From the NCBI GenBank assembly GCA_021604765.1, contig BQJP01000008.1:918-64917 (forward strand): a DNA stretch of 64,000 nt, read 5' to 3'. Shown here piece after piece: positions 9,073 to 62,395 of this stretch. The translations under genes were made by a program, and so were the position numbers. Each line of letters starts with the position of its first letter. Within the stretch, counting starts at the first letter, position 1. The stretch is from Thermodesulfobacteriota bacterium. Lineage in GTDB: Bacteria > Desulfobacterota_D > UBA1144 > Nemesobacterales > UBA2774. The notes beneath the pieces were generated by a model. It worked only from the letters and a program-made list of their open reading frames with translations, searched no databases and was not told the origin of the DNA.

Positions 9073-9110
9073 AACCTCTCGAAGTAGATTTTCTAGGAGG
9101 AATTTATTTA

Positions 9111-9320
9111 ATGCAGGGAACAGTAAAATGGTTTAACAGCTCTAAAGGATACGGATTTATCCAATCTGATGAGATAGATAAAGACGTATTTGTTCATTAC
9201 AGTGTTATCGAAGGCGACGGTTATAAGAGCCTAGCAGAAGGTGAAGCTGTAGAGTTTGAAATAACAGACGGACCAAAAGGGCCTCAAGCAACAAAAGTTA
9301 TGAAAGCTGGCTCTGAGTAG
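9111..9320 (+). CDS. cspA: Cold-shock protein (CspA family)
   Basis: 69 aa: [18 protein letters not shown]…VFVHYS with RNP1/RNP2 motifs. RBS AGGAGGAA. Confidence 0.9.
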
Positions 9321-10593: not shown

Positions 10594-11382
10594 CTAATCA
10601 GGCAGCTTGTTAAGTGCAATTACTGCAAACATAGCACCTTGAGAATCTTTAAGAAATGCCATTCTACCAACATCTGGTAAATCTTTTGCAGGAATTACTA
10701 TTTCACCACCTAATTCAACGGATTCATCCACTATAACATCGCAGTTATTGACGGCAAAATAAACAAACCACACAGGTGGCACACACCATTCTTCCTGTAT
10801 AGGCAACATCCCTGCTGCAGGCCTATCCCCGTTCATTAACATAGTATAGATAATACCATTGAAGTCCATATCTTGCGCTTGCCAGCCAAATAGTTCTGTA
10901 TAAAATTCTTTTGCTTTTTCAGTATCATTTGTTGCAAGCTCATTCCATACCAATGCGCCGTGCTCATTTACAACCTTGGCTCCTATATGCTTCAGAGGCT
11001 GCCATACTGAAAAAATAGCTCCTGTGGGATCTATAATCGCAGCCATTCTTCCGGCATCAAACACATCCATAGGTGAAACTACCATAGCCGCCCCCAATGA
11101 TTCAGCTTTTTCCACCACTTCATCTACATTTGAAACTGATATATAACTAGCCCAATGTGTCGGAATCCCTTGTTCTTTTTGTTCTGGCCACATTTCATAT
11201 AGCGCTGCAGTCTCTTTCCCTCTTATGTGAGCCATGGAATAAACGTTGTCATTGCCAATTGGCACATCAGTAATGTCCCAGCTAAAAAGCTTCGAATAAA
11301 ATTCTTTCGCCTTACCGGAATCTGAAGCTACTAATTCAGGCCAGCAAAAAGTTCCGGGTTTATATTCCGCCATTTCGCTCAT
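10594..11382 (-). CDS. Two-domain VOC (glyoxalase/bleomycin-resistance/dioxygenase) family protein
   Basis: 262 aa with tandem repeats of the …AKEFY..LFGW… VOC module. Confidence 0.65.
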   Translation of the reverse strand: MSEMAEYKPGTFCWPELVASDSGKAKEFYSKLFSWDITDVPIGNDNVYSMAHIRGKETAALYEMWPEQKEQGIPTHWASYISVSNVDEVVEKAESLGAAMVVSPMDVFDAGRMAAIIDPTGAIFSVWQPLKHIGAKVVNEHGALVWNELATNDTEKAKEFYTELFGWQAQDMDFNGIIYTMLMNGDRPAAGMLPIQEEWCVPPVWFVYFAVNNCDVIVDESVELGGEIVIPAKDLPDVGRMAFLKDSQGAMFAVIALNKLPD

Positions 11383-45970: not shown

Positions 45971-47542
45971 CTATCTCTTAGAAATACCAAGCTTTCTCAT
46001 TCGCGATTCTAGGGTGGAAGAGTTCAGCCCTAAGATCTTAGCTGCTCCTTTATCACCACTAACTCTCCCGCCAGTTAATTCTAAAGCTTTTAAAATATGG
46101 TTTTTCTCTAATTCTTCTAAAGTTGCAACCTCATTGCTATCCGACAGCTTATCATTTGTTTTACTTTTAGGTACCCAATCACCCAATTGCAATGTGGTCG
46201 TCTCACTTATAATCACTGCTCTCTCTATTATGTTTTCTAATTCCCTTACATTTCCAGGCCAGTTGTATTCTACAAGACGGCCCATAACCTTCTTACTTAC
46301 AGATTTGATGTTCTTTCCAACCTTTACTCCTAACTTGTCACAAAAGTAATTGACTAATAAAGGTATATCTTCCTTTCTCTCACGTAAGGCTGGAGAATGA
46401 AGGGGAAAAACATTGAGTCTATAAAAAAGATCTTCACGAAAATCTCCTTTTTCAATAGCAGTCTCTAAATCTCGATTAGTAGCTGCTATCACTCTTACGT
46501 CCACTTTCATAGTCTTCGGATTACCAAGTCTTTCAAATTCACCTTCTTGGAGAACCCTAAGCAGCTTAGCTTGTAGTCCCAATGGCAGGTCACCTATTTC
46601 ATCTAAAAATATAGTGCCGCCATTAGCAAGTTCAAATCTGCCGATTTTTTGACTTATAGCCCCGGTAAAAGCCCCCTTTTCATGACCGAATAACTCGCTC
46701 TCTATTAAATTAGCGGGAAGTGCAGAACAATTTACTTTTACCAAAGGTCTATCTTTTCTGGAGCTGTTGTTATGTACTGCACGTGCTAATAATTCTTTGC
46801 CTGTACCCGTCTCTCCCAGTATCAATACAGTCGAACTTGTTTGTGCAACCTGTTCAACTTTTTTTAATACTTTTTTTATTGTGTTACTTTTACCAATTAT
46901 CTCCGTAAAGTTGTATTCCTCTTTGATTTCTTCCTGAAGGTAAATATTTTCTTGTTCAAGTTGGTTCTTTAACTTCTCTACTTCAGAATAAGCCTGTTTA
47001 AGCGCCTCTTCCGCCTCTTTTTCTTTAGTTACATCTCTGAAAACAACAACTGCACCAACCAATTTACCTTTTTCCCATATAGGGGTGCTAACATATTCAA
47101 CAGGAAAGCTGCTTCCGTCTTTTCGCCAAAATACTTCATCTTTTACAACATGAACCTTGCCATCTTTGAAGGCTGCATATATAGGACACTCAGTGTTTGG
47201 ATAATGTGATCCATCAGCTCTTGAATGATGCAAGATCTTGTGTTGAGATTTCCCTAGGAGTTCTTCGGGATTCCAACCAATCATTTCTGCTGCCGCTGGG
47301 TTAACGAAGGTTGTATTTCCTTTTGAATCAAGGCCGTAGATTCCTTCTCCCGCAGCATTAAGGATTAACTCATTCCTTGTTTTAAGTTTGCTGATTTCAT
47401 CGCTCATCTCTTTTATCTTAACATGCGAGTATTTTTTTTCGAAGATATCTAAAACGTTAATTGTTCCTTTTACAACTTCATTGTTGAAAGTATTTTCTGA
47501 GAATGTTTCTTTTATTATTTTAGACATATCAAGCTCCTCCAA
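45971..47542 (-). CDS. Sigma-54-dependent transcriptional activator (PAS + AAA+ + Fis HTH)
   Basis: PAS domain, Walker [15 protein letters not shown] motif, [15 protein letters not shown], and a C-terminal HTH. Confidence 0.9.
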
Positions 47543-48315: not shown

Positions 48316-48777
48316 TTAAAGATCAGCGGGATCTTTGTCTTTTATATTTGGCCAATGCTTGTTTGCTTTTACTATATTGCCTGGAATATCTTCAAACCAT
48401 ATTTTCTGGATTTTTTTATCGAGATTAAGATATAGAGTTCCATCTACGATTTTCCATGCTTCAGGATCTCCGACAAATTTCTTACCTACTGATGCACCAT
48501 ATGCACAGTAACCTCCGTATGCCGGAAGATATTTATTAGGATTCGCTTCAAATGCCTTCTTGTTCGCTTCGTTGGCAAAGAGGTAAGTCACATCGTCAAT
48601 TACAACTAGGTTGTTTCCGTCACCTCTTACAGGTTTTCCTTCTGTATGATATGCAACAAGGTCATAACCTAGAACACCTGTTGTGCTTTCTTGAACATAT
48701 CCTGCAAAAGAATCAACTGCAAAAAAACTTACTGCTACAACTAAAACTGTTAACATAATTGTTTGAATTTTCTTCAT
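48316..48777 (-). CDS. Secreted YHS-domain-like protein
   Basis: Signal peptide, …GYDLVAY…YLF.NE.NK.AF..NP.KYLPAYGGYCAYG…. Confidence 0.55.
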   Translation of the reverse strand: MKKIQTIMLTVLVVAVSFFAVDSFAGYVQESTTGVLGYDLVAYHTEGKPVRGDGNNLVVIDDVTYLFANEANKKAFEANPNKYLPAYGGYCAYGASVGKKFVGDPEAWKIVDGTLYLNLDKKIQKIWFEDIPGNIVKANKHWPNIKDKDPADL

Positions 48778-48991: not shown

Positions 48992-49720
48992 CTATATCAG
49001 CTCAACCATGTTGTACTGAGACAATTTATCCTTGAACTGAAGCCTTGCTCTCCTAAGCCTGGACTTAACTGCACTGAGGCTTAGACCGAGCAATCTTCCA
49101 ACTTCAAGATTTGTGTGTCCTTCCATATCTTTTAAACGAAGCACAGTTCGGTATATTTCAGGAATCTCCATTAGTATTGATTCAATTTTTTCACGTCTCT
49201 TTTCTTGCATGAGTATTTGATCTGGAATAAACCTCCAGTCTTCTGCAGGCATAGAATACTTAGTTTCTTTCTCATCGTATGTTTCTTCTATAAGCTGTTT
49301 TTCATCTTGATACTTTTTATTACTTCTCAAATACATAAGACAAGTATTTTTAGCTATGCTATATAGCCAGGTAGAGAACTTGGATTCGTTTCTAAATGTT
49401 CCGAGCTTCTCTACAAGTGTTATGAAAACTTCCTGAAGAACATCATCAGCATTTCTTTCATTTTTGGTAAATTTAAGTGCAAGCCTGTATATCTTGCAGC
49501 TATATCTGTTTACAAGTTCATTAAATGCCCACTCATCTTTGTGATTTAAATAGAGTTTGACTAAATTTTCATCATCCTCATTTCTATACCTAATAAAAGA
49601 AAAATCCTCTGATTTATCAATTAGCGGTGACTCTATTACGTGTTTAATAGGTCTCTGCTTAACCTGGTAATTTGCAATATTATCTATATTGTTTGACTCT
49701 GCTAAATTAGTATTTTCCAT
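48992..49720 (-). CDS. ECF (sigma-70 family) sigma factor with N-terminal extension
   Basis: Region 2 …DVLQEVFITLVEKLGTF… and region 4 …RLLGLSLSAVKSRLRRAR…. Confidence 0.8.
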   Translation of the reverse strand: MENTNLAESNNIDNIANYQVKQRPIKHVIESPLIDKSEDFSFIRYRNEDDENLVKLYLNHKDEWAFNELVNRYSCKIYRLALKFTKNERNADDVLQEVFITLVEKLGTFRNESKFSTWLYSIAKNTCLMYLRSNKKYQDEKQLIEETYDEKETKYSMPAEDWRFIPDQILMQEKRREKIESILMEIPEIYRTVLRLKDMEGHTNLEVGRLLGLSLSAVKSRLRRARLQFKDKLSQYNMVELI

Positions 49721-50053
49721 CTTTCTTCTCCTTTTCTAATTCTTATTAATTTTTATTTACTACATGTATGTATAAAGCAAGGAGTGTGCCAAATATAAAA
49801 ATTAGGCTGGAGGATAATGTAATTGCCTTAAATAATTGAATTAAATTAACATTTAGGTGGAGCTTGGCTGAGGTTAACGTATTGAGATCAAATGTATTTA
49901 TTTACGCTATATTATAAATTTGCGAAATGTCACGACTTACTATTTCAATTTGATCTAAAGATAAGGTGTTGAGTAAACATGAATAGGAAGTCTTCTTGCA
50001 ATCTAATTATCTGTATTTTCCTAAAACTAATTATTTGCATCTCACTTTTATTG

Positions 50054-50560
50054 TTAGTAAGTAAAGGCGATGCCTATTAGTATTGCCTTAGAAGATTCTG
50101 CATGATATAAACCGATCTCAAACCCACAATCAATTGCTATTTGATCATTGGCCTCATATACAAAACTAGTTTTATGATATATTGGTTTTTCAGTATCATA
50201 TTCGGCAAACTCTCCTGCTACTTCTGAAACAACTGCTGTATTTTTTCTAAACGTAGGAACTTCTATCTCCAGCCCATAGTAAAACATTTCATCAAAAGGT
50301 TGGTCTATAAATATCTTGCTAGTTGGTGAATAGCCAAATTCCTCTTGTATTGGTGTAATAAATAGAATTTTTTCTAGTCCTAGCAAAACATCTGATTCAG
50401 ATCCAATTACTCTATATTCAATTCCTGTCTCTAACTCAACCTCCACTTTTTCGGATATATAGTCATAAACACCTTCGGTTGAAGAATGAGCAAACACTAA
50501 TTGAGAATTGAGAACGATGAAGAGTAAAAAAATCGTGTGAATAATAATTTTAAATAACAT
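50054..50560 (-). CDS. Secreted hypothetical protein
   Basis: Signal peptide. 168 aa. Tightly linked downstream of the TPR gene. Confidence 0.45.
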   Translation of the reverse strand: MLFKIIIHTIFLLFIVLNSQLVFAHSSTEGVYDYISEKVEVELETGIEYRVIGSESDVLLGLEKILFITPIQEEFGYSPTSKIFIDQPFDEMFYYGLEIEVPTFRKNTAVVSEVAGEFAEYDTEKPIYHKTSFVYEANDQIAIDCGFEIGLYHAESSKAILIGIAFTY

Positions 50561-50593
50561 TATGTTTCCCCCATATTTTTATTATATGAGACC

Positions 50594-51916
50594 TTACTTT
50601 CTAGTAACTAATATTGTATTTATATCCAGGATCAAAGCTTTAGATTCATTAACTTTGTTTTGATCAAAATATGGATTTATATCTAAAGCTAACTCAAAGT
50701 GCTTTTTAGCTTCCTTAAATTTATTCTGGCTATAGCAAATCATTCCCGCGTGATAATGGAGAAGGGCATCCTTTGTACCTAACTTAAGTGATTGGTTTAT
50801 GGCATCCTGAGCCTTATCAAGATCATTACGTTTGAAATGCACCCAAGCGAGTGTGTCATAAGCATAAATGTCTTCAGTATCTTTGGAATCTTGTAGGGCC
50901 AGATCTAACGCAAGGTCTAAATGTTTGTTACTATCTACATAAAATAATACAAGGTCTCTTGAGTGACCTTTAATGCCATCCTGTATTATCGTATCGTAAC
51001 TTTCCTCAGCCTTTTTATAAAGTCTGTCAGCCTTTTCGGTCTTGCCTTGGCTCTTGTAAATATCTCCAAGTGAAATATAAAACTGTGGTTTTGGGTTCAG
51101 CTCTAAGGTTTTTTCATAAAGATTAATTGCTTCTTCGAAATTACCTTTTATAGCATTTACTTCCGCCAGATGCTCAAGTGCAAGATAATAATTGTCATAG
51201 ATATCAAGTGCTTCTTTATAATAATCCCGGGCCTTGTCTAGCTCTCCAGTATTAAAATAAAATGAACCTAGAATTACTTTTGCCCAAGCTATGTTTTCAT
51301 TAGGCAGGTTCATTTTATTTCCATAATCTATTGATTTTTCCATCGCCTTAATTGCACCAATTGTGTCGCCCCAGAGAAACTTTAATTGAGCTATCCTGCT
51401 GTATGAATAAAAACCGGGCTCTAGATAGAGCATAAGTCCGTACGCTTTTAGAGCTTCTTCATACATACCAAGTTCAAGAAAGGCATCTCCTTGAAGTCCA
51501 TAAGATATAGCCTTGTCTGGCCTCAACTCTATTGCTTTTTTCGCATAATTTATTGATTTGTGAAAATCATGTTTATATGAACTAATCTGCCCTAAGTAGA
51601 TGTAAGCAGCATATGAATCAGGATAAAGCTCGAGTGCTCTCTCTATAGCTTTTTCTGCTAGTTGATAAGGGCCTATTTGACCCACTTCCCTACCTTTTTG
51701 TATGTAAGATTCTCCAAGTTTTAAGTAGTAATAGTAATCTTCAGGATGTTTGTTGATCTTAGTTTTATATAAATTTATCTCCTTATCAGCCGGACTTTCT
51801 ATGGCTACCTTTTCAACTTCACTATGAGAATGTCCACCTTTATGAGCGTAAGAGAAAGCTGGTGAAACTAATAATGCTATGAAGAAAAAAATTATTGGTG
51901 ATCTATATGTTATCAT
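50594..51916 (-). CDS. Secreted TPR-repeat protein with an N-terminal His-rich segment
   Basis: Signal peptide, HKGGHSHSE, and multiple TPR units (…YYYLKLGESY…, …ALKAYGLMLYLEP…). Confidence 0.75.
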   Translation of the reverse strand: MITYRSPIIFFFIALLVSPAFSYAHKGGHSHSEVEKVAIESPADKEINLYKTKINKHPEDYYYYLKLGESYIQKGREVGQIGPYQLAEKAIERALELYPDSYAAYIYLGQISSYKHDFHKSINYAKKAIELRPDKAISYGLQGDAFLELGMYEEALKAYGLMLYLEPGFYSYSRIAQLKFLWGDTIGAIKAMEKSIDYGNKMNLPNENIAWAKVILGSFYFNTGELDKARDYYKEALDIYDNYYLALEHLAEVNAIKGNFEEAINLYEKTLELNPKPQFYISLGDIYKSQGKTEKADRLYKKAEESYDTIIQDGIKGHSRDLVLFYVDSNKHLDLALDLALQDSKDTEDIYAYDTLAWVHFKRNDLDKAQDAINQSLKLGTKDALLHYHAGMICYSQNKFKEAKKHFELALDINPYFDQNKVNESKALILDINTILVTRK

Positions 51917-51958
51917 GGTTTATCCTCCTATTTAGATTGCAAATTAAGCAGTAAAATG

Positions 51959-51979
51959 AGGGGGCATGCTGCCCCCTCT
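51959..51979 (-). terminator. Intercistronic hairpin (9-bp GC stem GAGGGGGCA/TGCCCCCTC) between the DUF4331 and TPR genes
   Basis: Perfect 9-bp stem with a 3-nt loop. The downstream U-tract on the minus strand is weak, so this is a possible partial terminator or attenuator. Confidence 0.35.
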
Positions 51980-51988
51980 ATTATTCTA

Positions 51989-53647
51989 TTAATCAACTGG
52001 ACAAAAGCCCGTGTCTGTACCTGTACAACCAAACTCTCCTGGATCAACGTGACGGCTATTGCGTCCATCATTTGGATAATTCAAATAAGGAAATGATGTG
52101 CGGTATGGAAGCACATCATTTGCGTTAACACCATCGCCAATTCTATTGTGAGGAAAGATGTTGAAATCAGGATTTAATACTCCTACAGCTACACGGGATG
52201 TAATATCAATCACATCATCAATCACACGACGTCCGTTAGGAAATCCGGCAGGGTCATCATTGAACTCATCATCATCAAGAACGGTCAGGAAACCTAAACG
52301 GCTTTGCTGATCAGGCGGTGTTGGAGGAACTCCAGTGTTAAGTCTGAGCAGGTCAGCAATCGGTCCTGTTGGTGTTCCCTCAGGAGCAATAGGTGCTGTG
52401 TACTGTACTAGTGGTAAAAGATCAAGCCTTGGAACATTAGGTATAGGAAGAATGTTCGGGCCAAATAGAGCCTCATATACTGAGTTCAATACTCTAGCAA
52501 TTACTGGATCGAGAAAGAAATCTGAGAACTCTGCATCATTTTTTGGCTGAGCCATACTGAACTTATCTTTAAATCCAATACCAATGATTAGCTCGTTAAT
52601 TAGAGGATTAGCCATTCTTTGAATCTGAGTGAATCTTCTTGATAGTCTGGGATCTTCTCCAGGTCCTCTGAAAGTTTTCTTGGTAGGTCTTGAGCTTGTT
52701 CCCCACATACCTATTGTGGACTCTGGTTCTGAGGCGCTATGAATCTCGCCATCGCTAGTTAGAAGTTCTATTGGAACTTCTATGGCAATAGCGTTTACGT
52801 TATAACCAGAGAACTCATCAGAAGCATAGTTGTTAAAATCATCAGCATCTTGTTCATCAGTTAATACACCCTGTACAACAAAACCTTGGGTTCTGAAATT
52901 GAATGAATCGAATGCTGCGCCAAGATCTAGCCAGAACGGATCATCAACAGTACCGGCAAAAGATTTAACACCGTTATCAAGCTTATAAATACCCTGCTCA
53001 AATAATAATGGGTAATTAGGCATGGTTCTTGGGCCTGCATTGGTAGGAACTTTAAATAGTGATCCACCGTTAGCATTTTGAAGGACTGTACGTTTCTTTC
53101 CTTTTACCATTGTAACGGTATAGGACTGTCTTAGACCAAGTCCTTCAGACCCGGGTCCATCTAAAGCTGTAATTGCTGGTGGGACAACCAGCTGTCCAAC
53201 AGTTGAATTTCCGTTTAAGTCATCCGGAGAATTAGCTGGCGCATTTACACCACCAAGCGCACCAACATACGCAGTAAATACATTTGGTAATCGAATTTCA
53301 TTCTGAAAGCGAAATTCGAAAACTATATCTTCCACTGCGTCATGGTCGTTATCAACCCTAATTGCATATAGAATTTCAGGATCGAAGGGGAAATATGTAG
53401 GACCGTTTCCTGGTTCTAGAAACGGGTCGTAAGTTACAATCATTGTAACTTTGTCAGAAGCGCTAGGATCCGAAGGATCATAACTTACGAAAGCAAATAC
53501 ATCTGGTATATCGGCTTCGTCATCTATCGCAGTTATAGGAGCCTCTCTATGATTAGCTGCCTGTGCGATATTTTGAATACTTGTAATAGACATTGTTAAG
53601 CCCATTATCAATAATGCAAATACGGTGAAAACTCTTGAAATACTCAT
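51989..53647 (-). CDS. Secreted DUF4331-family protein
   Basis: Signal peptide, then …ANHREAP…DDEADIPDVFAF… The true start is likely ATG 53647 (MSISRVF) with GGAGGT 7 nt upstream. Confidence 0.6.
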   Translation of the reverse strand: MSISRVFTVFALLIMGLTMSITSIQNIAQAANHREAPITAIDDEADIPDVFAFVSYDPSDPSASDKVTMIVTYDPFLEPGNGPTYFPFDPEILYAIRVDNDHDAVEDIVFEFRFQNEIRLPNVFTAYVGALGGVNAPANSPDDLNGNSTVGQLVVPPAITALDGPGSEGLGLRQSYTVTMVKGKKRTVLQNANGGSLFKVPTNAGPRTMPNYPLLFEQGIYKLDNGVKSFAGTVDDPFWLDLGAAFDSFNFRTQGFVVQGVLTDEQDADDFNNYASDEFSGYNVNAIAIEVPIELLTSDGEIHSASEPESTIGMWGTSSRPTKKTFRGPGEDPRLSRRFTQIQRMANPLINELIIGIGFKDKFSMAQPKNDAEFSDFFLDPVIARVLNSVYEALFGPNILPIPNVPRLDLLPLVQYTAPIAPEGTPTGPIADLLRLNTGVPPTPPDQQSRLGFLTVLDDDEFNDDPAGFPNGRRVIDDVIDITSRVAVGVLNPDFNIFPHNRIGDGVNANDVLPYRTSFPYLNYPNDGRNSRHVDPGEFGCTGTDTGFCPVD

Positions 53648-53681
53648 AATTCTTACCTCCATTGAAGTTGTTTTGAATATA

Positions 53682-53709
53682 TATACGGAGGTTGTTCTGA
53701 ATTGGAGCA
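53682..53709 (-). promoter_or_regulatory. ECF-type promoter TGCTCCAA-N14-CGTATA upstream of DUF4331
   Basis: Minus strand: TGCTCC (53709-53704), a 16-nt spacer, then CGTATA (53687-53682). It shares the motif found at 55081, 55651 and 57085. Confidence 0.55.
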
Positions 53710-53769
53710 TATATTTTATAGAACTAATATGTATTTTATAATATATATGTATTATTTTGACTTCTGGAA

Positions 53770-53802
53770 ACTAAAACGGCTGCCTTTTAGACAGCCGTTT
53801 AT
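53770..53802 (-). terminator. Intrinsic terminator after msrB (stem AACGGCTG/CAGCCGTT, U-tract on minus strand)
   Basis: 8-bp stem at 53775-53782 and 53792-53799. Confidence 0.5.
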
Positions 53803-53881
53803 ACAAGATAGGAGATTAAGAGATGATTCTTAAAGGGGGATTTAGATTCTTTGTTACGATAAATTTTATCAATATGCACTA

Positions 53882-54412
53882 TTAATTCTTTTCCTCTACA
53901 AAAACAAGCGCACCCGAGTTTAAACAATATCTAAGGCCTGTTGGTTCTGGTCCATCGTTGAAGACGTGTCCCAAATGCTCTCCGCATTTTGACAAAACTT
54001 CAGTTCTTTTAAAACCTAGGTCGTAATCATCCTTGAGTACTATTGCATCTTCAGAGATAGGTTGATAGAAACTCGGCCATCCAGTACCAGAATCGTATTT
54101 ATGTTCTGAACTAAATACTGGCTCTTTACAGCCTGCGGTTAGGTATACGCCTTCCTTCTTATTGTAAAGCAGATCTCCCGAGAATGCTTTTTCTGTTCCT
54201 TTCTCCCAAAGCAACTGATACTGAACCGGCGTTAACCTTTGCTTCCATTCTTCTTTGGTAATTTTTGAGAGATCATTTGTGTTGGATTCTTCCTGCGTAG
54301 CCTCTGAAACTTTCACATAACCAATTGACTCTTTTTGCGTTGAATTAAAATATAATAGCCCAAGAGCTAAAATCACTACTAACATTATTCCCGTCGATAT
54401 TCTTTCATTCAT
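53882..54412 (-). CDS. msrB: Peptide-methionine (R)-S-oxide reductase MsrB with N-terminal signal/anchor
   Basis: …[24 protein letters not shown]… catalytic Cys motif. A Cys pair (…GCKEPVF…CGEH…) is consistent with the zinc site. Confidence 0.85.
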
Positions 54413-54481
54413 GGTTTTCTCCTCTAAAATAGAAGGCGCTTTTGAATTGCTATAAGCGCCCCTCTATTGTTTTTCATATAC

Positions 54482-55048
54482 TTAATTAGGTAATACAACA
54501 GTGTCTATGACGTGGATTACACCGTTTGACTGTATTACGTCATATGTCGTAATATTTGCAAAATTGCCCATTTCGTCCTTAAGAACAACGTTTGTTGGAC
54601 CATTCATCCAAGCAACTAAAGTATCACCACTAGCAGTTTTGAACTCAGCCTGTCCGCCTGCAGCTTTGATCTGCTCTGAAAGAGCCTTGAAATCTAGTCT
54701 TCCAGGAATTACATGATATGTGAGCACCTTAGTAAGGGTTTCCTTATTCTCGGGTTTTAGAAGTGTCTCAACAGTTCCTTCAGGTAGGTTTTCAAAAGCG
54801 TCATTTGTAGGAGCAAATACTGTAAATGGTCCTGGGCTTTTGAGAGTCTCAACCAACTCAGCTGCTTTTACTGCTGCAACCAAAGTGGTATGATCCTTCG
54901 AGTTAACAGCGTTGTCTATAATATCCTTTGTAGGATACATAGCCTCACCGCCAACTATTACATTACTTGCAAAAACATTTGATGCTGCCACTGTTAAAGT
55001 AGCAACAACAAGAAACATCATAATAAATTTTTTGAATATACTGTGCAT
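54482..55048 (-). CDS. Secreted fasciclin (FAS1) domain protein
   Basis: …FTVFAPTNDAF…TYHVIPG… FAS1 motifs. Confidence 0.85.
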   Translation of the reverse strand: MHSIFKKFIMMFLVVATLTVAASNVFASNVIVGGEAMYPTKDIIDNAVNSKDHTTLVAAVKAAELVETLKSPGPFTVFAPTNDAFENLPEGTVETLLKPENKETLTKVLTYHVIPGRLDFKALSEQIKAAGGQAEFKTASGDTLVAWMNGPTNVVLKDEMGNFANITTYDVIQSNGVIHVIDTVVLPN

Positions 55049-55080
55049 TTAAGCACCTCCTTAATTTTTTTTCATATATG

Positions 55081-55108
55081 ATTACGGAGGTTACTTTGAG
55101 TTGGATCA
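55081..55108 (-). promoter_or_regulatory. ECF-type promoter TGATCCAA-N14-CGTAAT upstream of fasciclin-msrB
   Basis: Minus strand: TGATCC (55108-55103), a 16-nt spacer, then CGTAAT (55086-55081). RBS GGAGGTG before ATG 55048. Confidence 0.6.
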
Positions 55109-55244
55109 TAAAAAAGAATATTTTTTTGATTAGCACGAACTTTATTATAGAAAGTAGACTGCGAAATTATTCAGATTAGCATATGAGACGATAAAGCAAT
55201 TTAATCTCTAGTAACAATAAGGAGTTAATATTTTTTAGATTACA

Positions 55245-55292
55245 AAAAAGACGGGGGAAGCCTTGTCTATTATGGACTTGGCTTCCCTCTTT
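55245..55292 (-). terminator. Intrinsic terminator (stem GGGAAGCC/GGCTTCCC) after the small secreted protein gene
   Basis: 8-bp GC stem at 55255-55262 and 55280-55287. The minus strand is followed by CCGTCTTTTTT. Confidence 0.55.
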
Positions 55293-55307
55293 TGGGTTGG
55301 GGTATGG

Positions 55308-55586
55308 TTATGATTTGTTGGCTGTGGGGACACTAACGCCAAAGACTATCAAACTGTCTTGATCACTCGAATTATTAACTTGCTTCGAGTCTGTTTCTAT
55401 ATTTTCGCCTTTTGAGCTTATATAGAAACTAATGAAATCTGTCTCAACCATTCCACCTTTTGCTTGGTCGTTAACAGTGCTTTTAACTACGGGTGTTTGT
55501 ACACCGAAAACGTTAACGTCTGCAAAGGATAAGGAAGGACTTAGTAGAGCTAGACTCAATGTTGCTATTGCTAATAGCTTTCTCAT
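55308..55586 (-). CDS. Small secreted hypothetical protein
   Basis: 92 aa with a signal peptide. Confidence 0.5.
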   Translation of the reverse strand: MRKLLAIATLSLALLSPSLSFADVNVFGVQTPVVKSTVNDQAKGGMVETDFISFYISSKGENIETDSKQVNNSSDQDSLIVFGVSVPTANKS

Positions 55587-55650
55587 TTGACTTACCTCCT
55601 TTTAAAATATTTATTCTGAGCCGCTAGGATCATGAATATGTTTTCCTAAG

Positions 55651-55678
55651 ATTACGTTGATACAATAATATTGGATCA
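55651..55678 (-). promoter_or_regulatory. ECF-type promoter TGATCCAA-N14-CGTAAT upstream of the small secreted protein gene
   Basis: Minus strand: TGATCC (55678-55673), a 16-nt spacer, then CGTAAT (55656-55651). Confidence 0.55.
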
Positions 55679-55772
55679 CTTATTTTAATAAGAGGTGGAT
55701 TTATTGAGATTATTACAATTGTTAAGATTTATATTATAGAAAATTATATGAATATTCGATCAAGAATGAAGC

Positions 55773-56381
55773 TTATTCGGCAGGCAACATCTCATTTTCT
55801 TGAGAAGCTTGTATTAATAGGAAACAACCTGTTACAGTGGAAATACTTTCATGAACACTATGTGCATCAGCTCGAATATAATCTCCTTTACCAAAGGTCA
55901 TTCCGCCCATGCTTAACTCACCTTCTATGATGTAACACTCTTCAGCTTCTGCATGAACATGGTCTGGGAAAGTCGATCCAGGATCCATTTTTACAAGAAC
56001 AGTTGAATACTTTCGGGCAGGATCTTCATAAAGCTGTTTTACTTTGACACCATCTACGACTTCAACCCAATCACCTTGATTTTCTCGCACAAATAGATAA
56101 CCGGTTTCCTTCTCTGCTACATCCCTTTCTTTTTGGATTTTTGTAAAAAGTTTATCCTCTAAGCCTCTTGGTTCTTTGCGGGGCTCAGTACTATAAGTTA
56201 CGTCTTCCATTATTTCGTTGAAGTAATCAAGATGCACAGATGCTGAGCCATTTTCTTTAAGCATAGCCTCAAATACTGCTTTATCTTCGTCACCTAAAAC
56301 TCCTAATGCATAAGAAGCAGCCAGATCTTGAATTTCTTCGTCAGTGTACTTTTGACTCATATAAATGTCCTTGTTCTTCAT
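55773..56381 (-). CDS. Cytoplasmic anti-sigma factor: RskA-like N-terminal sigma-binding domain + C-terminal cupin (ChrR-like architecture)
   Basis: N-terminus …LAASYALGVLGDEDKAVFEAML… with no Cys and no TM. C-terminal cupin …VLVKMDPGSTFPDHVH…EECYIIEGEL… It overlaps the ECF sigma gene upstream. Confidence 0.65.
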   Translation of the reverse strand: MKNKDIYMSQKYTDEEIQDLAASYALGVLGDEDKAVFEAMLKENGSASVHLDYFNEIMEDVTYSTEPRKEPRGLEDKLFTKIQKERDVAEKETGYLFVRENQGDWVEVVDGVKVKQLYEDPARKYSTVLVKMDPGSTFPDHVHAEAEECYIIEGELSMGGMTFGKGDYIRADAHSVHESISTVTGCFLLIQASQENEMLPAE

Positions 56382-57021
56382 TAATTATATTCTTCATTTT
56401 AACCATTGCAACTCTGATAGTGCTCTTTACAGATCCTACGGGAATACCAACTTTATCCGCAATTTCACTATGGCTGTACTGATGATAATAAGAAAGCTCC
56501 ACGACCTCTTTTTGCTTAGGTGTGAGTTGAGCCATGGCATGTTTTGTGATTTTTCTCATTTCTGAAGCAACATAAGTATCTTCAGGATTATCTGTTCCCG
56601 TCACCATGCTATCATCAATGCTATCGTCAATGTGAACTGTTTTTGCACTTTTTCTAATCTTATCAATTGAACGGCTCCTGGTAATCATCAATAACCAACT
56701 TAAAGGCTTGCTCAGATCTGAATCATATTTGGATGCGTTGTTCCATACATACATAAATACCTCAAGGGCAACTTCTTCAGCCTCTTCCGGATTAGAAATA
56801 ATCTTATGAGACATACTGTAAACTAGTCTTACAGTTTGTTGGTAAAACGTTCTCATTGCATTTTCATCGCCATTTGAAATTAGCGATAATAATGTTTTTA
56901 ATTCATTTTCCCTGTCAGTGTGCTCAGTAGCAACTGTAGCAGTATCCTGATTCATTTTTTCCCTGTAACTATCTAAGAATAATATGTTAGAATCATTTAT
57001 CTTTGCCATTATATCACACAC
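56341..57021 (-). CDS. ECF sigma factor (cognate to the cupin anti-sigma)
   Basis: Sigma-70 region 2 …EVALEVFMYVWNNASKYD… and region 4 …YSHSEIADKVGIPVGSVKSTI…. Confidence 0.8.
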   Translation of the reverse strand: MCDIMAKINDSNILFLDSYREKMNQDTATVATEHTDRENELKTLLSLISNGDENAMRTFYQQTVRLVYSMSHKIISNPEEAEEVALEVFMYVWNNASKYDSDLSKPLSWLLMITRSRSIDKIRKSAKTVHIDDSIDDSMVTGTDNPEDTYVASEMRKITKHAMAQLTPKQKEVVELSYYHQYSHSEIADKVGIPVGSVKSTIRVAMVKMKNIINEEQGHLYESKVH

Positions 57022-57084
57022 TCTATTCTATATCCAATCATTAAATTACCTTTTTATAGTTACAGAAATACTTATTCGAATAGT

Positions 57085-57112
57085 AATACGACAACTAGAT
57101 CAAATTGGATCA
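57085..57112 (-). promoter_or_regulatory. Autoregulatory ECF promoter TGATCCAA-N14-CGTATT
   Basis: Minus strand: TGATCC (57112-57107), a 16-nt spacer, then CGTATT (57090-57085). It lies upstream of the ECF/anti-sigma operon. Confidence 0.6.
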
Positions 57113-57208
57113 CTTATCTTTGTACTTAAGAAGAAAACATAGAAATGGAGCTGTATTAATAAGAGGTATTCTGCTATGCTTGCAGTAGTTTAGGATAGTT
57201 TGCAAGTT

Positions 57209-57799
57209 CTATTCATCTAATAAATTTAGAGTGTTTTTTAGTTTATCTTTAGCTAGTCTGATTGTGCTTTTTACAGAACCGACAGGCATATCCAACATTT
57301 CTGCAATTTCTGACTGATTGAATTGATAGAAGTAGACAAGCTCTATAACTTTTCTCTGCTTTGGGCTTAATTCCAATAAAGCATCCTGAACGATTTTACG
57401 CTTTTCCTGCCCTAAAACTGTATCTTCCGGGCTAAGATCAGTATTCGTCAATTCTCTTTCGAGCGAATCAGAAATCTCCATGGTGACTTTCCGTGAACGT
57501 AGTTTGTCTATGGCACGTGAGCGTGCAATCATTACAAGCCATGTAGTCGGGTTACTTTGTGAAGGATCAAAATTTGAAGCATTTTTCCAGACATACTTAT
57601 ATACATCTAGGGCAACTTCCTCAGATTCAGATGTATCACTAAGTATTTTCAGCACAAGGCTATATATCAGTCTATTAGACTCATCGTATAATTCACCTAG
57701 TGCATTATCATTTTGTTTTGCAATCTGTGTTAAAAGACGTTGCCATCTTTGATTTCTTTCTAAGGAAGTTTCGGATTTTATATTGATATCTGATGACAT
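57209..57799 (-). CDS. ECF sigma factor
   Basis: Region 2 …EVALDVYKYVWKNASNFD… and region 4 …FNQSEIAEMLDMPVGSVKSTIRLAK…. Confidence 0.8.
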   Translation of the reverse strand: MSSDINIKSETSLERNQRWQRLLTQIAKQNDNALGELYDESNRLIYSLVLKILSDTSESEEVALDVYKYVWKNASNFDPSQSNPTTWLVMIARSRAIDKLRSRKVTMEISDSLERELTNTDLSPEDTVLGQEKRKIVQDALLELSPKQRKVIELVYFYQFNQSEIAEMLDMPVGSVKSTIRLAKDKLKNTLNLLDE

Positions 57800-57990
57800 A
57801 TCTTATCCGTAAGCGGTTATGTAATTTTATACTATACAAAATTAACTGTATAGCGCAGCTAATATTAATTTATCACATAAAGTGAGCGAAATTTCAAAAG
57901 CGGACGTATACATGTTACAAAATATAGAAAAGTTATATGTAATTGTACTTTGATGTTACAAGATGTACCATATTATAATTGAGGAATAGC

Positions 57991-58806
57991 ATGCCTTACG
58001 ACGACAGAATCGAAGAGTTAATATCGGCTTATACACTTGGTGTACTAGACGGTAATGAACTTAAAGAACTCGAAGATTATATAAGAAAAAACCCTGGTGT
58101 TTACCAAGAATTAATCAATGAGAATGAAGCAGTATTCTCTCAGTTAGCTTATGTCCTAAAAGTCTCTAGTCCAAGACCAGGATTACGAAATGAACTATTG
58201 TCAGATATACAAAAAGAAAAAAAGGTTTATGAAATTGAGACCAAACCGCCTTTCTGGCAAAGGTTACAGCCCCTGTGGCTGGGGTTAGGCAGTGCTGTTG
58301 CAGCAATTCTGATAATTTCTCTATTTACCTATAGTTCGTCTCTCAATAACACTGTAAAAGAGCAGCAAGCTAAGATTTCAAATCTTGAGGCTCTTATCTC
58401 CGAAAAAGATTCGGAACTAGCTTTGCTACAAGAAGAATTCGGCTCGCAATCCGAAATGTTAGCGTTTCTTGATAATCCTGAAGTTGTTATTATAAATCTT
58501 GTAAAAACAGAGCCCAATCTAAAAGCTGTGGCCAGAGTGCTCTGGAACCCAGGGGATGATGAAGCACTGTTTTATGGAATAAACCTCCCGGAGGTTCCTG
58601 AAGGCAAGACTTACCAATTATGGGCAATAGCAGGAGAAAAGCCTGAAAGCCTGGGTGTATTTAATGTTGACAATCATGGCAACAATGTTCATCTAATAAA
58701 ATCTCTCAGTAATTTTGGTGACATCGGTACTTTTGCAGTCAGCCTTGAGCCAGCAGGCGGGGTTCCTCTACCTACCGGGAAGGTATATCTAGCCGGTGAA
58801 ATTTAG
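57991..58806 (+). CDS. Membrane anti-sigma factor (RskA / anti-sigma-K type)
   Basis: N-terminus …LISAYTLGVLDGNELKELEDY…, a single TM (…LGLGSAVAAILIISLF…), and a periplasmic C-domain. It is divergent from the ECF gene at 57799, with its own TTGATG-18-TATAAT promoter. ATG 57991 has GAGGA upstream. Confidence 0.7.
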   Translation: MPYDDRIEELISAYTLGVLDGNELKELEDYIRKNPGVYQELINENEAVFSQLAYVLKVSSPRPGLRNELLSDIQKEKKVYEIETKPPFWQRLQPLWLGLGSAVAAILIISLFTYSSSLNNTVKEQQAKISNLEALISEKDSELALLQEEFGSQSEMLAFLDNPEVVIINLVKTEPNLKAVARVLWNPGDDEALFYGINLPEVPEGKTYQLWAIAGEKPESLGVFNVDNHGNNVHLIKSLSNFGDIGTFAVSLEPAGGVPLPTGKVYLAGEI

Positions 58807-58931
58807 CCATTATATTTATTTTTGATCAACCTAAAATATGCAAATAAATGGAAGAACAATCCCACTACAATCACATAAGTTCATAAATAGCATGATAAAT
58901 CTAACAATTCAAGTGAGTTGTGCACTTGGAA

Positions 58932-58981
58932 CGGGGCTCTCATAAGGCCTGTGTCGGTGGTTCAAATCCACCCGTCGCCAC
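58932..58981 (+). repeat. 50-bp direct repeat copy 2 (3' half of tRNA-Met), putative attR
   Basis: Exact copy of 42443-42492. There is no 5' tRNA half here, so it is not a functional tRNA. Confidence 0.85.
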
Positions 58982-59007
58982 CAATCATTTCAATGTCTTA
59001 AGCTGAT

Positions 59008-59351: not shown

Positions 59352-59930
59352 ATGAATAAAACACCGGAAAATACAAATCATTCAGACTTGCAACTGATAG
59401 AGGAAATTGTGGATAGCAACAAAGAGGCGTTTAAAGCTCTCTATGAAAAGTATGTACGGCAGGTTTTCTCTTTTGTTTACAAAATAACGAGGGATTCAAA
59501 GCTTACAGAGGAAGTTGTAAACGATACCATGTTTGAGGTTTGGAAAGGTGCTGCAAATTTCAAAGGAAATTCAACTGTATTGACGTGGATTTTTGGAATT
59601 GCACATAACAAATCGATGAACGAGCTTAGAAAGAAAAGACCTGAAGCCCTCGATCCTGAAGAGTTCTCAAGATTTGCAAGTTCCGATGAAACTGCGGAGG
59701 AAATTGTGGTGAAGAAAGATAGATCAGAAAGAATGAATTATGCTATGAGCGAACTTTCCCCAGAGCATAGAACAGTTTTAGAGCTTACTTTTTATAACGG
59801 TTTGTCATATCAGGAAATAGCAGAAATTATGGAATGTCCCGTAAATACAGTAAAAACCAGGATGTTTTATGCAAAAAATAAGCTTAAGGAAAGTCTCAGT
59901 AAATACGGAATCAATCAACAGGAGTTATAG
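59352..59930 (+). CDS. ECF sigma factor
   Basis: Region 2 …EEVVNDTMFEVWKGAANF… and region 4 …LSYQEIAEIMECPVNTVKTRM…. Confidence 0.8.
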   Translation: MNKTPENTNHSDLQLIEEIVDSNKEAFKALYEKYVRQVFSFVYKITRDSKLTEEVVNDTMFEVWKGAANFKGNSTVLTWIFGIAHNKSMNELRKKRPEALDPEEFSRFASSDETAEEIVVKKDRSERMNYAMSELSPEHRTVLELTFYNGLSYQEIAEIMECPVNTVKTRMFYAKNKLKESLSKYGINQQEL

Positions 59931-59932: not shown

Positions 59933-60643
59933 ATGAGCGATAAAAATATATCACACGAAGAAATCAATCTTCTTCTCCCATGGTACTTAAACGGAACACT
60001 TGAGTCAGAGGAAAAAGAGATAGTAAAGAAACATCTCTCAGACTGTTCGCTATGTCATATGGAAATTGAAGAGCTCAAAATGTTGAGAAGCACCGTACTG
60101 GAAGCTAACGAAGCTCAGAATGAAATGCTAAGTGTCCCTGTTGAAAAGATGGAAATGAACGTCATGGATAGAATTGACTCCTTTGAGGAATCGATTGAGC
60201 AAAAAACTCAAAGGGTTCCAATTGATGATACAGATTCAATATGGTCCAAGGTGCAGGGATTCTTTGATGGGATCGCCCTACCTTCACTATCACCAGTAGG
60301 AATGGCCGCACTTTTTGTCATACAGTTTGCAATTATATTAGGTCTGGCCGGGACGCTATTTTTTACAGAGCCTGAGTATGAAGTCCTTAGCGGAAACACC
60401 CAGACTGAAGTAATTAGCGGGCCGACGATTATGCTTTCATTCAAAGACAGTGCAACAGAAAAAGAAATACGCGAAATTTTAAGGGAAATTGATGGCCGAA
60501 TAATTGACGGTCCCAAAGCTGGTGGATTATATATTGTAGAGTTACCTGAAGAAATGACTAATGAGAAAATAATGGAAAATGTAATTGATGATCTGAGCTC
60601 AAATACAAAAGTGATAAAAAATGTCTTTAAGGGAAGCAAGTAA
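59933..60643 (+). CDS. Membrane anti-sigma factor with zf-HC2-type N-terminus
   Basis: H..DCSLCHMEIEEL (HxxxCxxC), one TM (…ALFVIQFAIILGLAGTLFF…), and a periplasmic C-domain. Confidence 0.65.
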   Translation: MSDKNISHEEINLLLPWYLNGTLESEEKEIVKKHLSDCSLCHMEIEELKMLRSTVLEANEAQNEMLSVPVEKMEMNVMDRIDSFEESIEQKTQRVPIDDTDSIWSKVQGFFDGIALPSLSPVGMAALFVIQFAIILGLAGTLFFTEPEYEVLSGNTQTEVISGPTIMLSFKDSATEKEIREILREIDGRIIDGPKAGGLYIVELPEEMTNEKIMENVIDDLSSNTKVIKNVFKGSK

Positions 60644-60676: not shown

Positions 60677-62395
60677 ATGTTGAGAATGAAAATAAACATA
60701 ATAATAGTTGTTTTAATATATGTCTTTTGTTTAGCATATATTGCTGGTGCCCAGGAGAATAAGCCACCTAGCAATCCCAATATTCCTACTAATCCTAATG
60801 ACCCAACTTTCCCAAGAGATCCGAATCAAGGACAACGCATCATCGTACCACCACCGAATAAAGTAATTGTAATCCCGGATGTAGATGATAATCCCAGAAT
60901 ACCGGACAATAACCCTAATAAGCCAGACCGTAACCCACCACGAATACCTGACTATCCAAATAATCCAGGCAGAGTACCCGGTACTCCTGACAGATTAGAT
61001 CCTGAGCCTGAAATACCAAGAGAGCCTATCGCTGAACCAGAGATCCCAAGGGACCCCGTCGCTGAGCCTGATATTCCAACTGTGCCGGATGTACCTGAGC
61101 AACCACAAGGTGTACCAAAAGATCCTGTTGTTGATCAAAATGACCCCAATATTCCCAGACCTGATGACCAAATACCGGCCGCACCAAAACTTCCGGATGA
61201 CCCTTCATTAATTCAGCCTGACATGGAAACTGAATTTCTCACAGCTCCGGTATTTAAAGATGTAACACCCAAAATATTAGAAAGCGACCTAAATAATTAT
61301 ATCCCGAATCAAGTACTGGTGTTGTTAGAGGGCTCGTCAGAAAAGCAGCAAGACATTGATTCTCTGTCCCAAAGCTATAACATTAATAGTATAGACAGTT
61401 CTGTACTAAGCTCTATAAATGCTACTATGGTGCTTTTTGAAATACCTGACAACAGAGGTGTCATTGACGTCTCTAGAACCCTGGCAGCGGATTCAAGAAC
61501 TTTAGCCGCTCAACCTAATTTTTACTTCGAGGGCATGAGCGAAAACAACATTCAATATGGTGTACAGAAGATTAAAGCTGATTCTGCACATAGTATTTCT
61601 ACCGGGAAGGGGATAAAAGTGGCAGTAATAGATACTGGTATAGATTACAGTCATAAAGCTATAGCAAATAAAATATTTATGAAATCAGATTTTGTGGATA
61701 CAGGCTCCTATGAGTTTGATGTACACGGAACATCAATAGCCGGGATTATTGCTTCAACATCAATTGAAGACGGTATAACCGGAGTAGCGCCTGACGTTAA
61801 GATAATTGCAGCAAGAGCTTGTTGGAAAGATCCCAAAAATAAAATTAATACCCTATGTTCATCTAATACTCTTGCTAAAGCACTAAACTACGCCATTTTA
61901 AATAAAGCGCATATCATAAACTTGAGTTTAGGCGGTCCAAAGGACAATATCGTTTCCCTGCTGATAACTAAAGCTAGTAGAGCTGGTATTGTGATAGTTG
62001 CTGCTGCTGGTAATGGAGGCCCCAAAGGCAAGCCGGTCTATCCTGCGGCTTTAAAGGAGGTAATTGCTGTTTCTGCAACTGATTCAGATGATAAACTCTA
62101 CCAATCCTCGACCAGAGGTAAGTATATAGATTTATCAGCACCTGGTGTAGATATCTTAAGTACTGCTCCTGGAAACTCCTGGCAGGTTATTTCAGGAACA
62201 TCCATGGCCGCGGCTCATGTAACAGGGGCTATAGCACTGGTTCTTCAGAAACACCCTGAGTTATCAGCGTTTCAAATGAAAAGCTTGCTTGGATCTACTT
62301 CCATAGATCTGGGCAAGAAAGGCAAAGATATTGAGTTTGGAGAGGGTAGAATAGATGCTTTAAGCGCTCTTCACAAATTAAAGACTAACCCCTAA
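60677..62395 (+). CDS. Secreted subtilisin-like S8 serine protease with N-terminal Pro-rich low-complexity region
   Basis: Signal peptide, about 150 aa of P/D/N/E-rich repeats (…PEIPREPIAEPEIPRDPVAEPDIP…), and the catalytic triad VIDTGID / HGTSIAG / GTSMAAAHVTG. Confidence 0.85.
   Translation: MLRMKINIIIVVLIYVFCLAYIAGAQENKPPSNPNIPTNPNDPTFPRDPNQGQRIIVPPPNKVIVIPDVDDNPRIPDNNPNKPDRNPPRIPDYPNNPGRVPGTPDRLDPEPEIPREPIAEPEIPRDPVAEPDIPTVPDVPEQPQGVPKDPVVDQNDPNIPRPDDQIPAAPKLPDDPSLIQPDMETEFLTAPVFKDVTPKILESDLNNYIPNQVLVLLEGSSEKQQDIDSLSQSYNINSIDSSVLSSINATMVLFEIPDNRGVIDVSRTLAADSRTLAAQPNFYFEGMSENNIQYGVQKIKADSAHSISTGKGIKVAVIDTGIDYSHKAIANKIFMKSDFVDTGSYEFDVHGTSIAGIIASTSIEDGITGVAPDVKIIAARACWKDPKNKINTLCSSNTLAKALNYAILNKAHIINLSLGGPKDNIVSLLITKASRAGIVIVAAAGNGGPKGKPVYPAALKEVIAVSATDSDDKLYQSSTRGKYIDLSAPGVDILSTAPGNSWQVISGTSMAAAHVTGAIALVLQKHPELSAFQMKSLLGSTSIDLGKKGKDIEFGEGRIDALSALHKLKTNP

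Follow-up and report, generated by a model that had tools for sequence, protein, structure and literature searches.

What reads the four promoter-like sites on the minus strand of a 64-kb stretch of DNA from a Thermodesulfobacteriota bacterium (contig BQJP01000008.1, 38% G+C; the window hereafter, meaning the whole stretch that was analysed), and what is controlled from them? The relatives of this DNA are Candidatus Dadabacteria genomes. An earlier reading of the same letters, here called the original prediction, had proposed a self-contained regulon made of an extracytoplasmic function (ECF) sigma factor, a cupin-type anti-sigma factor and neighbouring genes for exported proteins, and had linked it to ECF11, the group of ChrR-controlled sigma factors that respond to singlet oxygen. 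The analysis reported here makes it probable that the locus is a switch of another kind, in which an autoregulated SigK-like sigma factor, paired with a soluble, zinc-less anti-sigma factor of the cupin type, drives exported proteins including a periplasmic methionine sulfoxide reductase (MsrB).

The four sites were read directly on the minus strand, where their positions and their architecture are as originally proposed:

Site 1, 57112-57085 (minus): TGATCCAATTTGATCTAGTTGTCGTATT; TGATCC-N16-CGTATT, 5' of the sigma/anti-sigma operon
Site 2, 55678-55651 (minus): TGATCCAATATTATTGTATCAACGTAAT; TGATCC-N16-CGTAAT, 5' of the gene of a small secreted protein
Site 3, 55108-55081 (minus): TGATCCAACTCAAAGTAACCTCCGTAAT; TGATCC-N16-CGTAAT, 5' of the fasciclin-msrB unit
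Site 4, 53709-53682 (minus): TGCTCCAATTCAGAACAACCTCCGTATA; TGCTCC-N16-CGTATA, 5' of the unit DUF4331-TPR-hypothetical protein

Common to all four are a -35 block of 6 nucleotides (nt), a spacer of exactly 16 nt opening with AA and a -10 block of the CGTA type; every site is intergenic and co-oriented with the downstream gene. The pattern first drawn from them occurs four times in 64 kb, at no other position of the window, against 0.00 expected (100 shuffles), a circular test as the pattern was built from the four sites. An independent test relied on the ECF11 consensus TGATCC-N16-CGTA, which was derived from the literature and not from sites of the window. Three exact matches were found against 0.01 expected, a number reached in no shuffle, and allowing one mismatch added site 4 (TGCTCC) together with one unrelated match in the window. 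The shared motif is real and non-random. The original prediction was right to attribute this consensus to ECF11: targets of Shewanella RpoE2 carry TGATCC-N16-CGTA(A/T)T with mapped transcription starts (PMC4336711), the consensus for P. syringae PSPTO_1043 is TGATCC-N16-CGTA (PMC5507510), and among six plasmid-borne sigma genes with a partner annotated as ChrR family or cupin, we read the same motif directly 5' of four. From the end of the -10 block to the start codon the distance is 32 nt for the fasciclin gene, 34 nt for DUF4331, 64 nt for the small secreted protein and 75 nt for the sigma gene (ATG 57009), a slightly wider range than the 25-60 nt once given; the good ribosome-binding sites claimed along with it do not extend to the sigma gene, where this site is weak. 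An open reading frame (ORF) called mechanically from 53710, inside site 4, was rejected as an artefact, the homologues all being 552 amino acids (aa) long and starting at the equivalent of 53647.

The genes and terminator-like elements served by these sites are:

56341-57009 (minus): ECF sigma factor, 222 aa from ATG 57009 (alternative GTG 57021), Pfam Sigma70_r2 and Sigma70_r4_2
55773-56360 (minus): soluble anti-sigma factor, 195 aa, Pfam Cupin_7 (74.8 bits), start overlapping the end of the sigma gene by 20 nt
55308-55586 (minus): small secreted protein, 92 aa, signal peptide, no Pfam family
55243-55287 (minus): hairpin and U-run resembling an intrinsic terminator, ending the small-protein unit; -19.3 kcal/mol, z -4.4
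54482-55048 (minus): exported fasciclin (FAS1) protein, 188 aa, PF02469 (109.7 bits), N-terminal hydrophobic segment
53882-54412 (minus): MsrB, SelR (144.9 bits), TIGR00357 (165 bits, above its cut-off), hydrophobic N-terminus
53770-53799 (minus): terminator-like hairpin and U-run, ending the fasciclin-msrB unit; -17.5 kcal/mol, z -5.95
51989-53647 (minus): exported DUF4331 protein, 552 aa, PF14224 (329.9 bits)
50594-51916 (minus): exported TPR protein, 440 aa, TPR families, 13 His, His-rich start of the mature protein, hydrophobic N-terminus
50054-50560 (minus): exported hypothetical protein, 168 aa, signal-like N-terminus, no Pfam or NCBIfam family

Pfam confirmed the gene identities of the original prediction (ECF sigma factor, Cupin_7 anti-sigma factor, fasciclin, SelR/MsrB, DUF4331 and TPR) and, with the sites, bears out a compact ECF sigma/cupin anti-sigma unit with a shared promoter before itself and before three neighbouring units. 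The six non-regulatory proteins of the cluster all have a hydrophobic N-terminus, and MsrB, with its N-terminal membrane anchor or signal, is predicted to face the periplasm. The two terminator-like hairpins at unit ends were missed by a simple terminator scan because of its loop limits and were revealed by direct folding; their predicted positions fit four transcription units, the last of which probably ends with the 168-aa hypothetical gene. Weaker hairpins with short U-tracts lie inside two predicted operons, between fasciclin and msrB (54425-54472, minus) and between DUF4331 and TPR (51950-51985, minus; hairpin ahead of the TPR gene at 51958-51978), and could lower expression of the distal genes. 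An Rfam search of positions 49000-59000 of the window returned no known RNA family.

Conservation was assessed in 13 distinct related loci of the Dadabacteria type, with anti-sigma factors 48-83% identical and different flanks. Seven loci were obtained via anti-sigma homologues (83-48% identical) and more were added by scanning one genome per species. Despite the differing flanks, the order sigma, cupin anti-sigma, (small protein), fasciclin, msrB, DUF4331, TPR is kept, and the two-block motif is retained 5' of the orthologous genes. Orthologues of the small secreted protein (46-68% identical) occur in the loci L001, L007, L012, L004 and L018, and those of the 168-aa hypothetical protein, among the loci compared, in L001 and L002 only. 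Each of the ten related loci with a fasciclin gene has the fasciclin site, at a distance of 32-36 nt to the ATG except in L007, where the called start is 71 nt away; its variants are GAGATCC, AAGATCC and TGCTCC with a 17-nt spacer. The DUF4331 site is likewise present in the eight related loci with this gene, although weak in L001 (TGATCT); it lies at 32-36 nt in L001, L002, L003, L005, L007 and L012, and in L004 and L018, two more divergent Dadabacteria loci that each carry TTCATCCAAT-N15-CGTATA at three positions, it takes that same form. A site just 3' of the anti-sigma gene occurs in every related locus covering this position bar L018 under one criterion; on a separate reading a TTCATCCAAT site does occur there in L018 too. 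The corresponding site is weak in L002 (TGATCT), and in L004 the gene that follows it is a sigma-like ORF. Spacer sequences vary freely between species, both blocks and the distance to the start codon being constant. In the 20-kb loci every weight-matrix site scoring at least 20 lies inside the cluster and on the gene strand; the window and the flanks of the related loci gave no further motif hits. This pattern is the one expected of a functional promoter and not of a repeat.

In L003, at 10700-10900, and in the same region of L005, L006, L014 and L015, the post-anti-sigma site reads GTGATCCG-N14-CCGTATAAC and is invariant. The small-protein gene is absent from these five loci, with no conserved ORF between that site and the fasciclin promoter about 200 nt further on, and the product of this site may be a small RNA or a very short peptide; the corresponding region of the window gave no Rfam match.

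The same data bear on whether the motif is a promoter at all. It might instead be bound as an operator by a conventional DNA-binding regulator, or be a repeat that travelled with the cluster, as sites 1 and 3 have a longer identical stretch in common, ATAAGTGATCCAAT, and sites 2 and 4 share AACCTCCGTA. However, conservation is confined to two short blocks held 16 nt apart and shows no dyad, the spacer diverges between species where the blocks and the start-codon distance are kept, the orientation is always with the gene, an ECF sigma gene lies within the cluster, and the blocks equal an ECF promoter type with mapped starts (PMC4336711). This explanation was considered and rejected, its chance of being correct being very small.

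If the sites are promoters of an ECF sigma factor, the next question is which family this factor belongs to. The locus might be a bona fide ECF11 sigma-E/ChrR singlet-oxygen regulon with unusual extra targets. Like the systems of that group (R. sphaeroides sigma-E/ChrR, Shewanella RpoE2-ChrR and PSPTO_1043), it has a sigma gene overlapped by the gene of a soluble two-domain anti-sigma factor, composed of a four-helix anti-sigma domain and a cupin-like domain with His-His-Glu-His at identical spacing, and it has promoters identical to the ECF11 consensus, one of them ahead of the sigma operon (here three exact sites and the TGCTCC variant). Some ECF11 targets also serve periplasmic oxidative defence, Shewanella PgpD being a periplasmic glutathione peroxidase (PMC4336711).

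The sigma factor itself points elsewhere. Against NCBIfam models it scored 130 bits on SigK (PRK09646) and 131 bits on PRK12519, compared to 71-73 bits on NF008890, NF009178 and NF009183, the models on which ECF11 references score best (135-336 bits); for real ECF11 sigma factors the ranking is reversed, with about 94-102 bits on the SigK model. Among proteins of solved structure, the window sigma comes closest to M. tuberculosis SigK (4NQW, 75.5 bits, versus 62.6 bits for R. sphaeroides RpoE). It is 44% identical to a neighbouring sigma factor (57209-57799), 30-32% identical to four of five SigK-like references, 24% to M. tuberculosis SigK and 23-26% to the ECF11 references. In a neighbour-joining tree of 74 sigma factors, the six plasmid references and R. 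sphaeroides RpoE stood apart from a large group comprising SigK, the SigK-like sigma factors of Pantoea and Pseudoalteromonas and nearly all cupin-partnered sigma factors. The window sigma grouped with ECF11 in 2 of 300 bootstraps, and with its RskA-partnered neighbour and other Dadabacteria sigma factors in 69-84%. Judged by profiles and tree, the ECF11 membership that had been proposed is not supported. A computational ECF group covering this system may already exist.

In region 4.2, the residue that follows the conserved V/I-K-S of the -35 recognition helix (about residues 190-200 of the window sigma) varies by group. It is W or H in Pantoea, L004, L065 and L067, four of the five sigma factors shown with CATCC sites; W in Pseudoalteromonas, also with CATCC; T in the Dadabacteria sigma factors with GATCC; and R in ECF11 sigma factors with GATCC. 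This pattern is a lead only, L071 being an exception and the neighbouring paralog also having T.

The anti-sigma factor unites features of two families. Residues 8-85 match the general anti-sigma models NF052375 and PRK13920, and the N-terminus is 32% identical (E 4e-9) to that of the RskA-type protein encoded nearby. An AlphaFold2 model (predicted local distance difference test, pLDDT, 77) shows a set of four helices at the N-terminus and a cupin barrel, and the top three Foldseek matches are R. sphaeroides ChrR (2Q1Z, 2Z2S), aligned over both domains, which speaks for an ECF11 system. Invariant residues are H134, H136, E140, H170, C142 and C179; the spacing 2/4/30 of H134/H136/E140/H170 equals that of the ChrR cupin ligands H141, H143, E147 and H177, ChrR having in addition a zinc site formed by H6, H31, C35 and C38 (H-x3-C-x2-C; PMC6852236). 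Unlike ChrR, which needs this zinc site, the window protein has no Cys and one His in residues 1-90, and all four zinc ligands are missing. With TIGR02451, the ChrR family model (cut-off 124.5), it scored 31.9 bits, the match being confined to the cupin region; a reference ChrR (L074) reached 205.5 bits. The HxxxCxxC motif was seen in no Dadabacteria-type anti-sigma homologue examined. Among 64 loci from many phyla with anti-sigma relatives, some keep it, a point in favour of the ECF11 reading, and many are without it; the cupin HxH...EE is present in all. No transmembrane segment was detected in the window anti-sigma factor (maximum hydropathy 0.89), and Pfam gave no RskA_C domain, a cupin standing in its place. 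From its sequence and its model, the protein is best described as a hybrid of an RskA/ChrR-like anti-sigma domain without the zinc motif and a ChrR-type cupin.

Gene content was considered as well. No photolyase gene or gene for fatty-acid modification (cyclopropane or furan) was found with the motif in the window, nor any photolyase or fatty-acid-modifying gene with it in the flanks of the related loci, and nothing specific points to the singlet-oxygen response once suggested. Furthermore, CATCC is the -35 box of L004, of L018 and of some relatives among proteobacteria and planctomycetes, as it is of the SigK-like cassettes of Pantoea and Pseudoalteromonas. One ECF11-type observation goes the other way: in the ChrR-annotated reference locus L078, on a plasmid of Qingshengfaniella alkalisoli, TGATCC-N16-CGTAAC at 4255-4282 (minus) lies about 70 nt 5' of a fasciclin gene, which would make fasciclin proteins possible ECF11 targets in some Rhodobacterales too. 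By eye, TGAAAC-N16-CGTATA is seen upstream of the fasciclin gene of Rhizobium aquaticum (L059). All in all, we regard a true ECF11 regulon as an unlikely explanation.

Another comparison is with M. tuberculosis SigK/RskA (mpt70, mpt83; ECF19) and its Gram-negative counterpart, the ECF18-type cassette. The mpt83/mpt70 fasciclin genes form with sigK-rskA a conserved cassette with a conserved SigK site, also found in Gram-negative bacteria (PMC7509140); this cassette and the L078 site make the claim that all the exported proteins would be new regulon members an overstatement as regards fasciclin. The window shares with these systems a sigma factor nearest to theirs by profile, although below the model cut-offs, and by solved structure, an anti-sigma N-terminus homologous to that of RskA, a genuine RskA-partnered paralog next door, promoters of the xxATCC-N16-CGTA type, and an exported fasciclin-domain protein as a direct target, here predicted from site 3 located 32 nt upstream. 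The window fasciclin is 60% identical to that of the fasciclin-sigma-anti-sigma cassette on a Pantoea plasmid (L008), where TGCATCC-N16-CGTATA precedes the fasciclin gene. There are differences too. RskA consists of a cytoplasmic domain, one transmembrane helix and an extracytoplasmic RskA_C domain, whereas the window anti-sigma factor has a cytoplasmic cupin instead. Two sigma cysteines conserved in 94% of ECF18 and 56% of ECF19 (PMC7509140) are both absent from the window sigma, which contains no cysteine. The -35 block is GATCC or GCTCC, unlike the CATCC of the Pantoea and Pseudoalteromonas cassettes, and MsrB, DUF4331-TPR and small secreted proteins are added to the predicted regulon. The system combines two known families and is a member of neither ECF11 nor, by its anti-sigma factor, SigK/RskA. 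As for MsrB, an exported methionine sulfoxide reductase under an ECF sigma factor with a cytoplasmic anti-sigma factor has a precedent in the Ecf-MsrAB system of Neisseria, which belongs to a different ECF group with a different promoter and includes neither fasciclin nor DUF4331.

The genuine SigK/RskA-type pair adjoining the cluster is encoded as follows:

57209-57799 (minus): paralogous ECF sigma factor, adjoining the cupin-partnered sigma gene
57979-58806 (plus): RskA-type membrane anti-sigma factor, divergent, partner of the paralogous sigma factor

Could the four promoters be read mainly by this paralog under its RskA-type anti-sigma factor, the cupin-partnered sigma having other targets or none here? 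The two sigma factors are 44% identical, with similar region 4.2 helices, and in L010, a 2.3-kb Dadabacteria contig, the orthologue of the paralog directly precedes a TGATCC site and the cupin anti-sigma gene (598-1949) without an intervening cupin-partnered sigma gene, the same parts being wired differently. However, L001, L003, L005, L006, L007 and L012 keep the motifs and the cluster with no paralog or rskA gene within the locus DNA examined. In addition, rskA has a conserved site of its own, GTGAGC(G/T)-N16-CGTATACAT, in the window (57883-57910, plus) and in L002 (about 8100-8135, minus), which has the same -10 box as the four TGATCC sites and a different -35 box. This conserved, different -35 box suggests that the paralog has a separate -35 specificity and that the promoters of the two sigma factors are insulated from each other. 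Control of the cluster mainly by the paralog is therefore a reading to which we give little credence.

The motif and its conservation, the genes present, the domains of their products and the families to which they are assigned were established directly; from these we infer how the cupin-partnered switch would recognise promoters, bind its partner, perceive a signal and serve the cell. The SigK-like sigma factor would be co-translated with its soluble anti-sigma factor, whose four-helix domain, by homology to RskA and ChrR, would keep it inactive. The cupin, with its His-His-Glu-His metal site and two invariant cysteines, is the likely input domain, as in ChrR. A cytoplasmic signal, for which an oxidant or a metal or redox change is favoured, would inactivate or remove the anti-sigma factor, and the freed sigma factor would take RNA polymerase to T-G-(A/C)-T-C-C-N16-CGTA promoters, so that four units would be transcribed: its own operon, giving positive feedback, the small secreted protein, fasciclin-msrB and DUF4331-TPR-hypothetical protein. 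Since all the outputs are exported and one is a periplasm-facing MsrB, which would repair oxidised methionine in the envelope, protection or repair of the cell envelope is the most likely output. The system would have arisen inside the SigK/RskA lineage, its nearest relative being the adjacent RskA-partnered paralog, and, given CATCC in L004 and L018 and in some relatives among proteobacteria and planctomycetes, the window clade's TGATCC looks like a shift or drift within a SigK-like lineage that uses CATCC.

Several points weigh against this proposal. The window sigma scores below the curated cut-off of every NCBIfam sigma subfamily (226 for PRK09646, 222 for PRK12519) and the deep branches of the tree are poorly supported, the ECF11 references being monophyletic in only 48% of bootstraps; because of both, the designation SigK-like is a nearest-neighbour statement only. 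Of the four promoters, that of the sigma gene itself is conserved least. Its site is kept directly 5' of the sigma gene in L001 and 5' of a short ORF preceding sigma in L002, is a weaker variant, TG[CA]TCTAATC..CG(A/T)ATAAGTA, in the clade of L003, L005, L006, L014, L015 and L017, and was not found in L007 or L012. Because of this absence and degeneracy, autoregulation may be weak or confined to certain lineages. In principle, the paralogous sigma factor encoded next door could also act on these promoters. The source organism is an uncultured, metagenome-assembled genome and the promoters are predicted from sequence. Finally, the regulon was delimited over 64 kb of genome and the flanks of the related loci; within this scope it is self-contained, as had been claimed, and further targets are possible.

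How far does this kind of switch extend, and is DUF4331 a regular part of it? More than 6300 homologues of DUF4331 were counted. Its sequences from Dadabacteria, Gammaproteobacteria and Acidobacteria share about 60% identity, and about 140 positions are invariant, with D, N, G and P frequent among them (for example GFPNGRR..DDV.D and DGVN.ND). Sequence and profile searches of the PDB yielded nothing meaningful and no solved relative, and an AlphaFold2 model from a 28-sequence alignment was discarded as too poor for a fold search (mean pLDDT 49.9). In many phyla DUF4331 is a neighbour of sigma/cupin anti-sigma pairs: of about 55 loci outside Dadabacteria, about 21 have it within 10 kb of the pair, frequently together with a TPR gene, which adjoins DUF4331 in many distant loci. 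As in the window, DUF4331 with or without TPR adjoins a SigK-like sigma gene in L081 (Pseudoalteromonas sp. HL-AS1, plasmid NZ_CP133570.1), L065 and L067 (metagenomic Gammaproteobacteria) and L071 (Planctomycetota). In L081 a SigK-like sigma, an RskA-type anti-sigma and DUF4331 follow one another, and TGCATCCAA-N14-CGTT stands 5' of both the sigma and the DUF4331 genes (2420-2470, 3780-3830). CATCC-type sites lie 5' of DUF4331 in L067 and L071, and in L065 5' of the TPR gene preceding DUF4331; (G)CATCC-N16-CGT is also present 5' of sigma in L065, L067 and L081. These clusters differ from that of the window by the RskA-type anti-sigma factor in Pseudoalteromonas, the CATCC -35 block, the CGTT -10 block in L081 and the lack of fasciclin and MsrB. 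As [GC]ATCC-N16/17-CGT was found upstream of only 4 of 23 distant DUF4331 genes, we do not claim this promoter to be universal across phyla. We know of no experimental study of the DUF4331-type clusters in other phyla; the cultured L081 strain is a tractable model for this branch. Literature searches retrieved no experimental work on the present system and no paper combining ECF, fasciclin and methionine sulfoxide reductase, and a full-text search returned none mentioning DUF4331.

A broader view of these data can be offered only tentatively, and we hold it to be rather doubtful. A SigK-like sigma factor with a soluble ChrR-type cupin anti-sigma factor, with the zinc motif or not, would be a widespread and unstudied ECF module of Dadabacteria, Acidobacteriota, Planctomycetota, Ignavibacteria, Bacteroidota and Proteobacteria, with DUF4331 and TPR as its recurring output in a metal- or redox-sensing envelope response. 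In the Dadabacteria branch, fasciclin and MsrB would be additions, and the -35 block would have moved from CATCC to GATCC for insulation from the co-resident SigK/RskA paralog. Should the switch proposed for the window itself be correct, it would be a natural example of rewiring, in which a SigK-type sigma factor keeps its hallmark fasciclin target, the membrane sensor has been exchanged for a cytoplasmic ChrR-type cupin that lost the zinc site ChrR requires, and the -35 preference seems to have diverged from that of the adjacent paralog. It would also provide a first regulatory handle on DUF4331, as probably part of an envelope stress response under SigK-like sigma factors. The short, defined promoter and the compact sigma/anti-sigma pair could find use as an orthogonal part for gene expression. 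How ECF signalling is understood in general would not change.

Minor observations concern the surroundings of the cluster. In L002, and identically in L011, the short ORF at 9028-9279 lies between the paralogous and the cupin-partnered sigma genes, 3' of a TGATCC site at 8895, and may encode a truncated anti-sigma factor of the kind described for Nocardia RskA. In the window, four ECF sigma genes are found within 11 kb: 48992-49720 (minus), 56341-57009 (minus), 57209-57799 (minus) and 59352-59930 (plus), the last followed by a zf-HC2 anti-sigma gene (59933-60643) and a subtilase gene (60677-62395). Just beyond the cluster, a YHS-domain protein is encoded at 48316-48777 and a sigma-54 activator at 45971-47542; L007 is flanked by similar genes, and L001 likewise by one for a sigma-54 activator.

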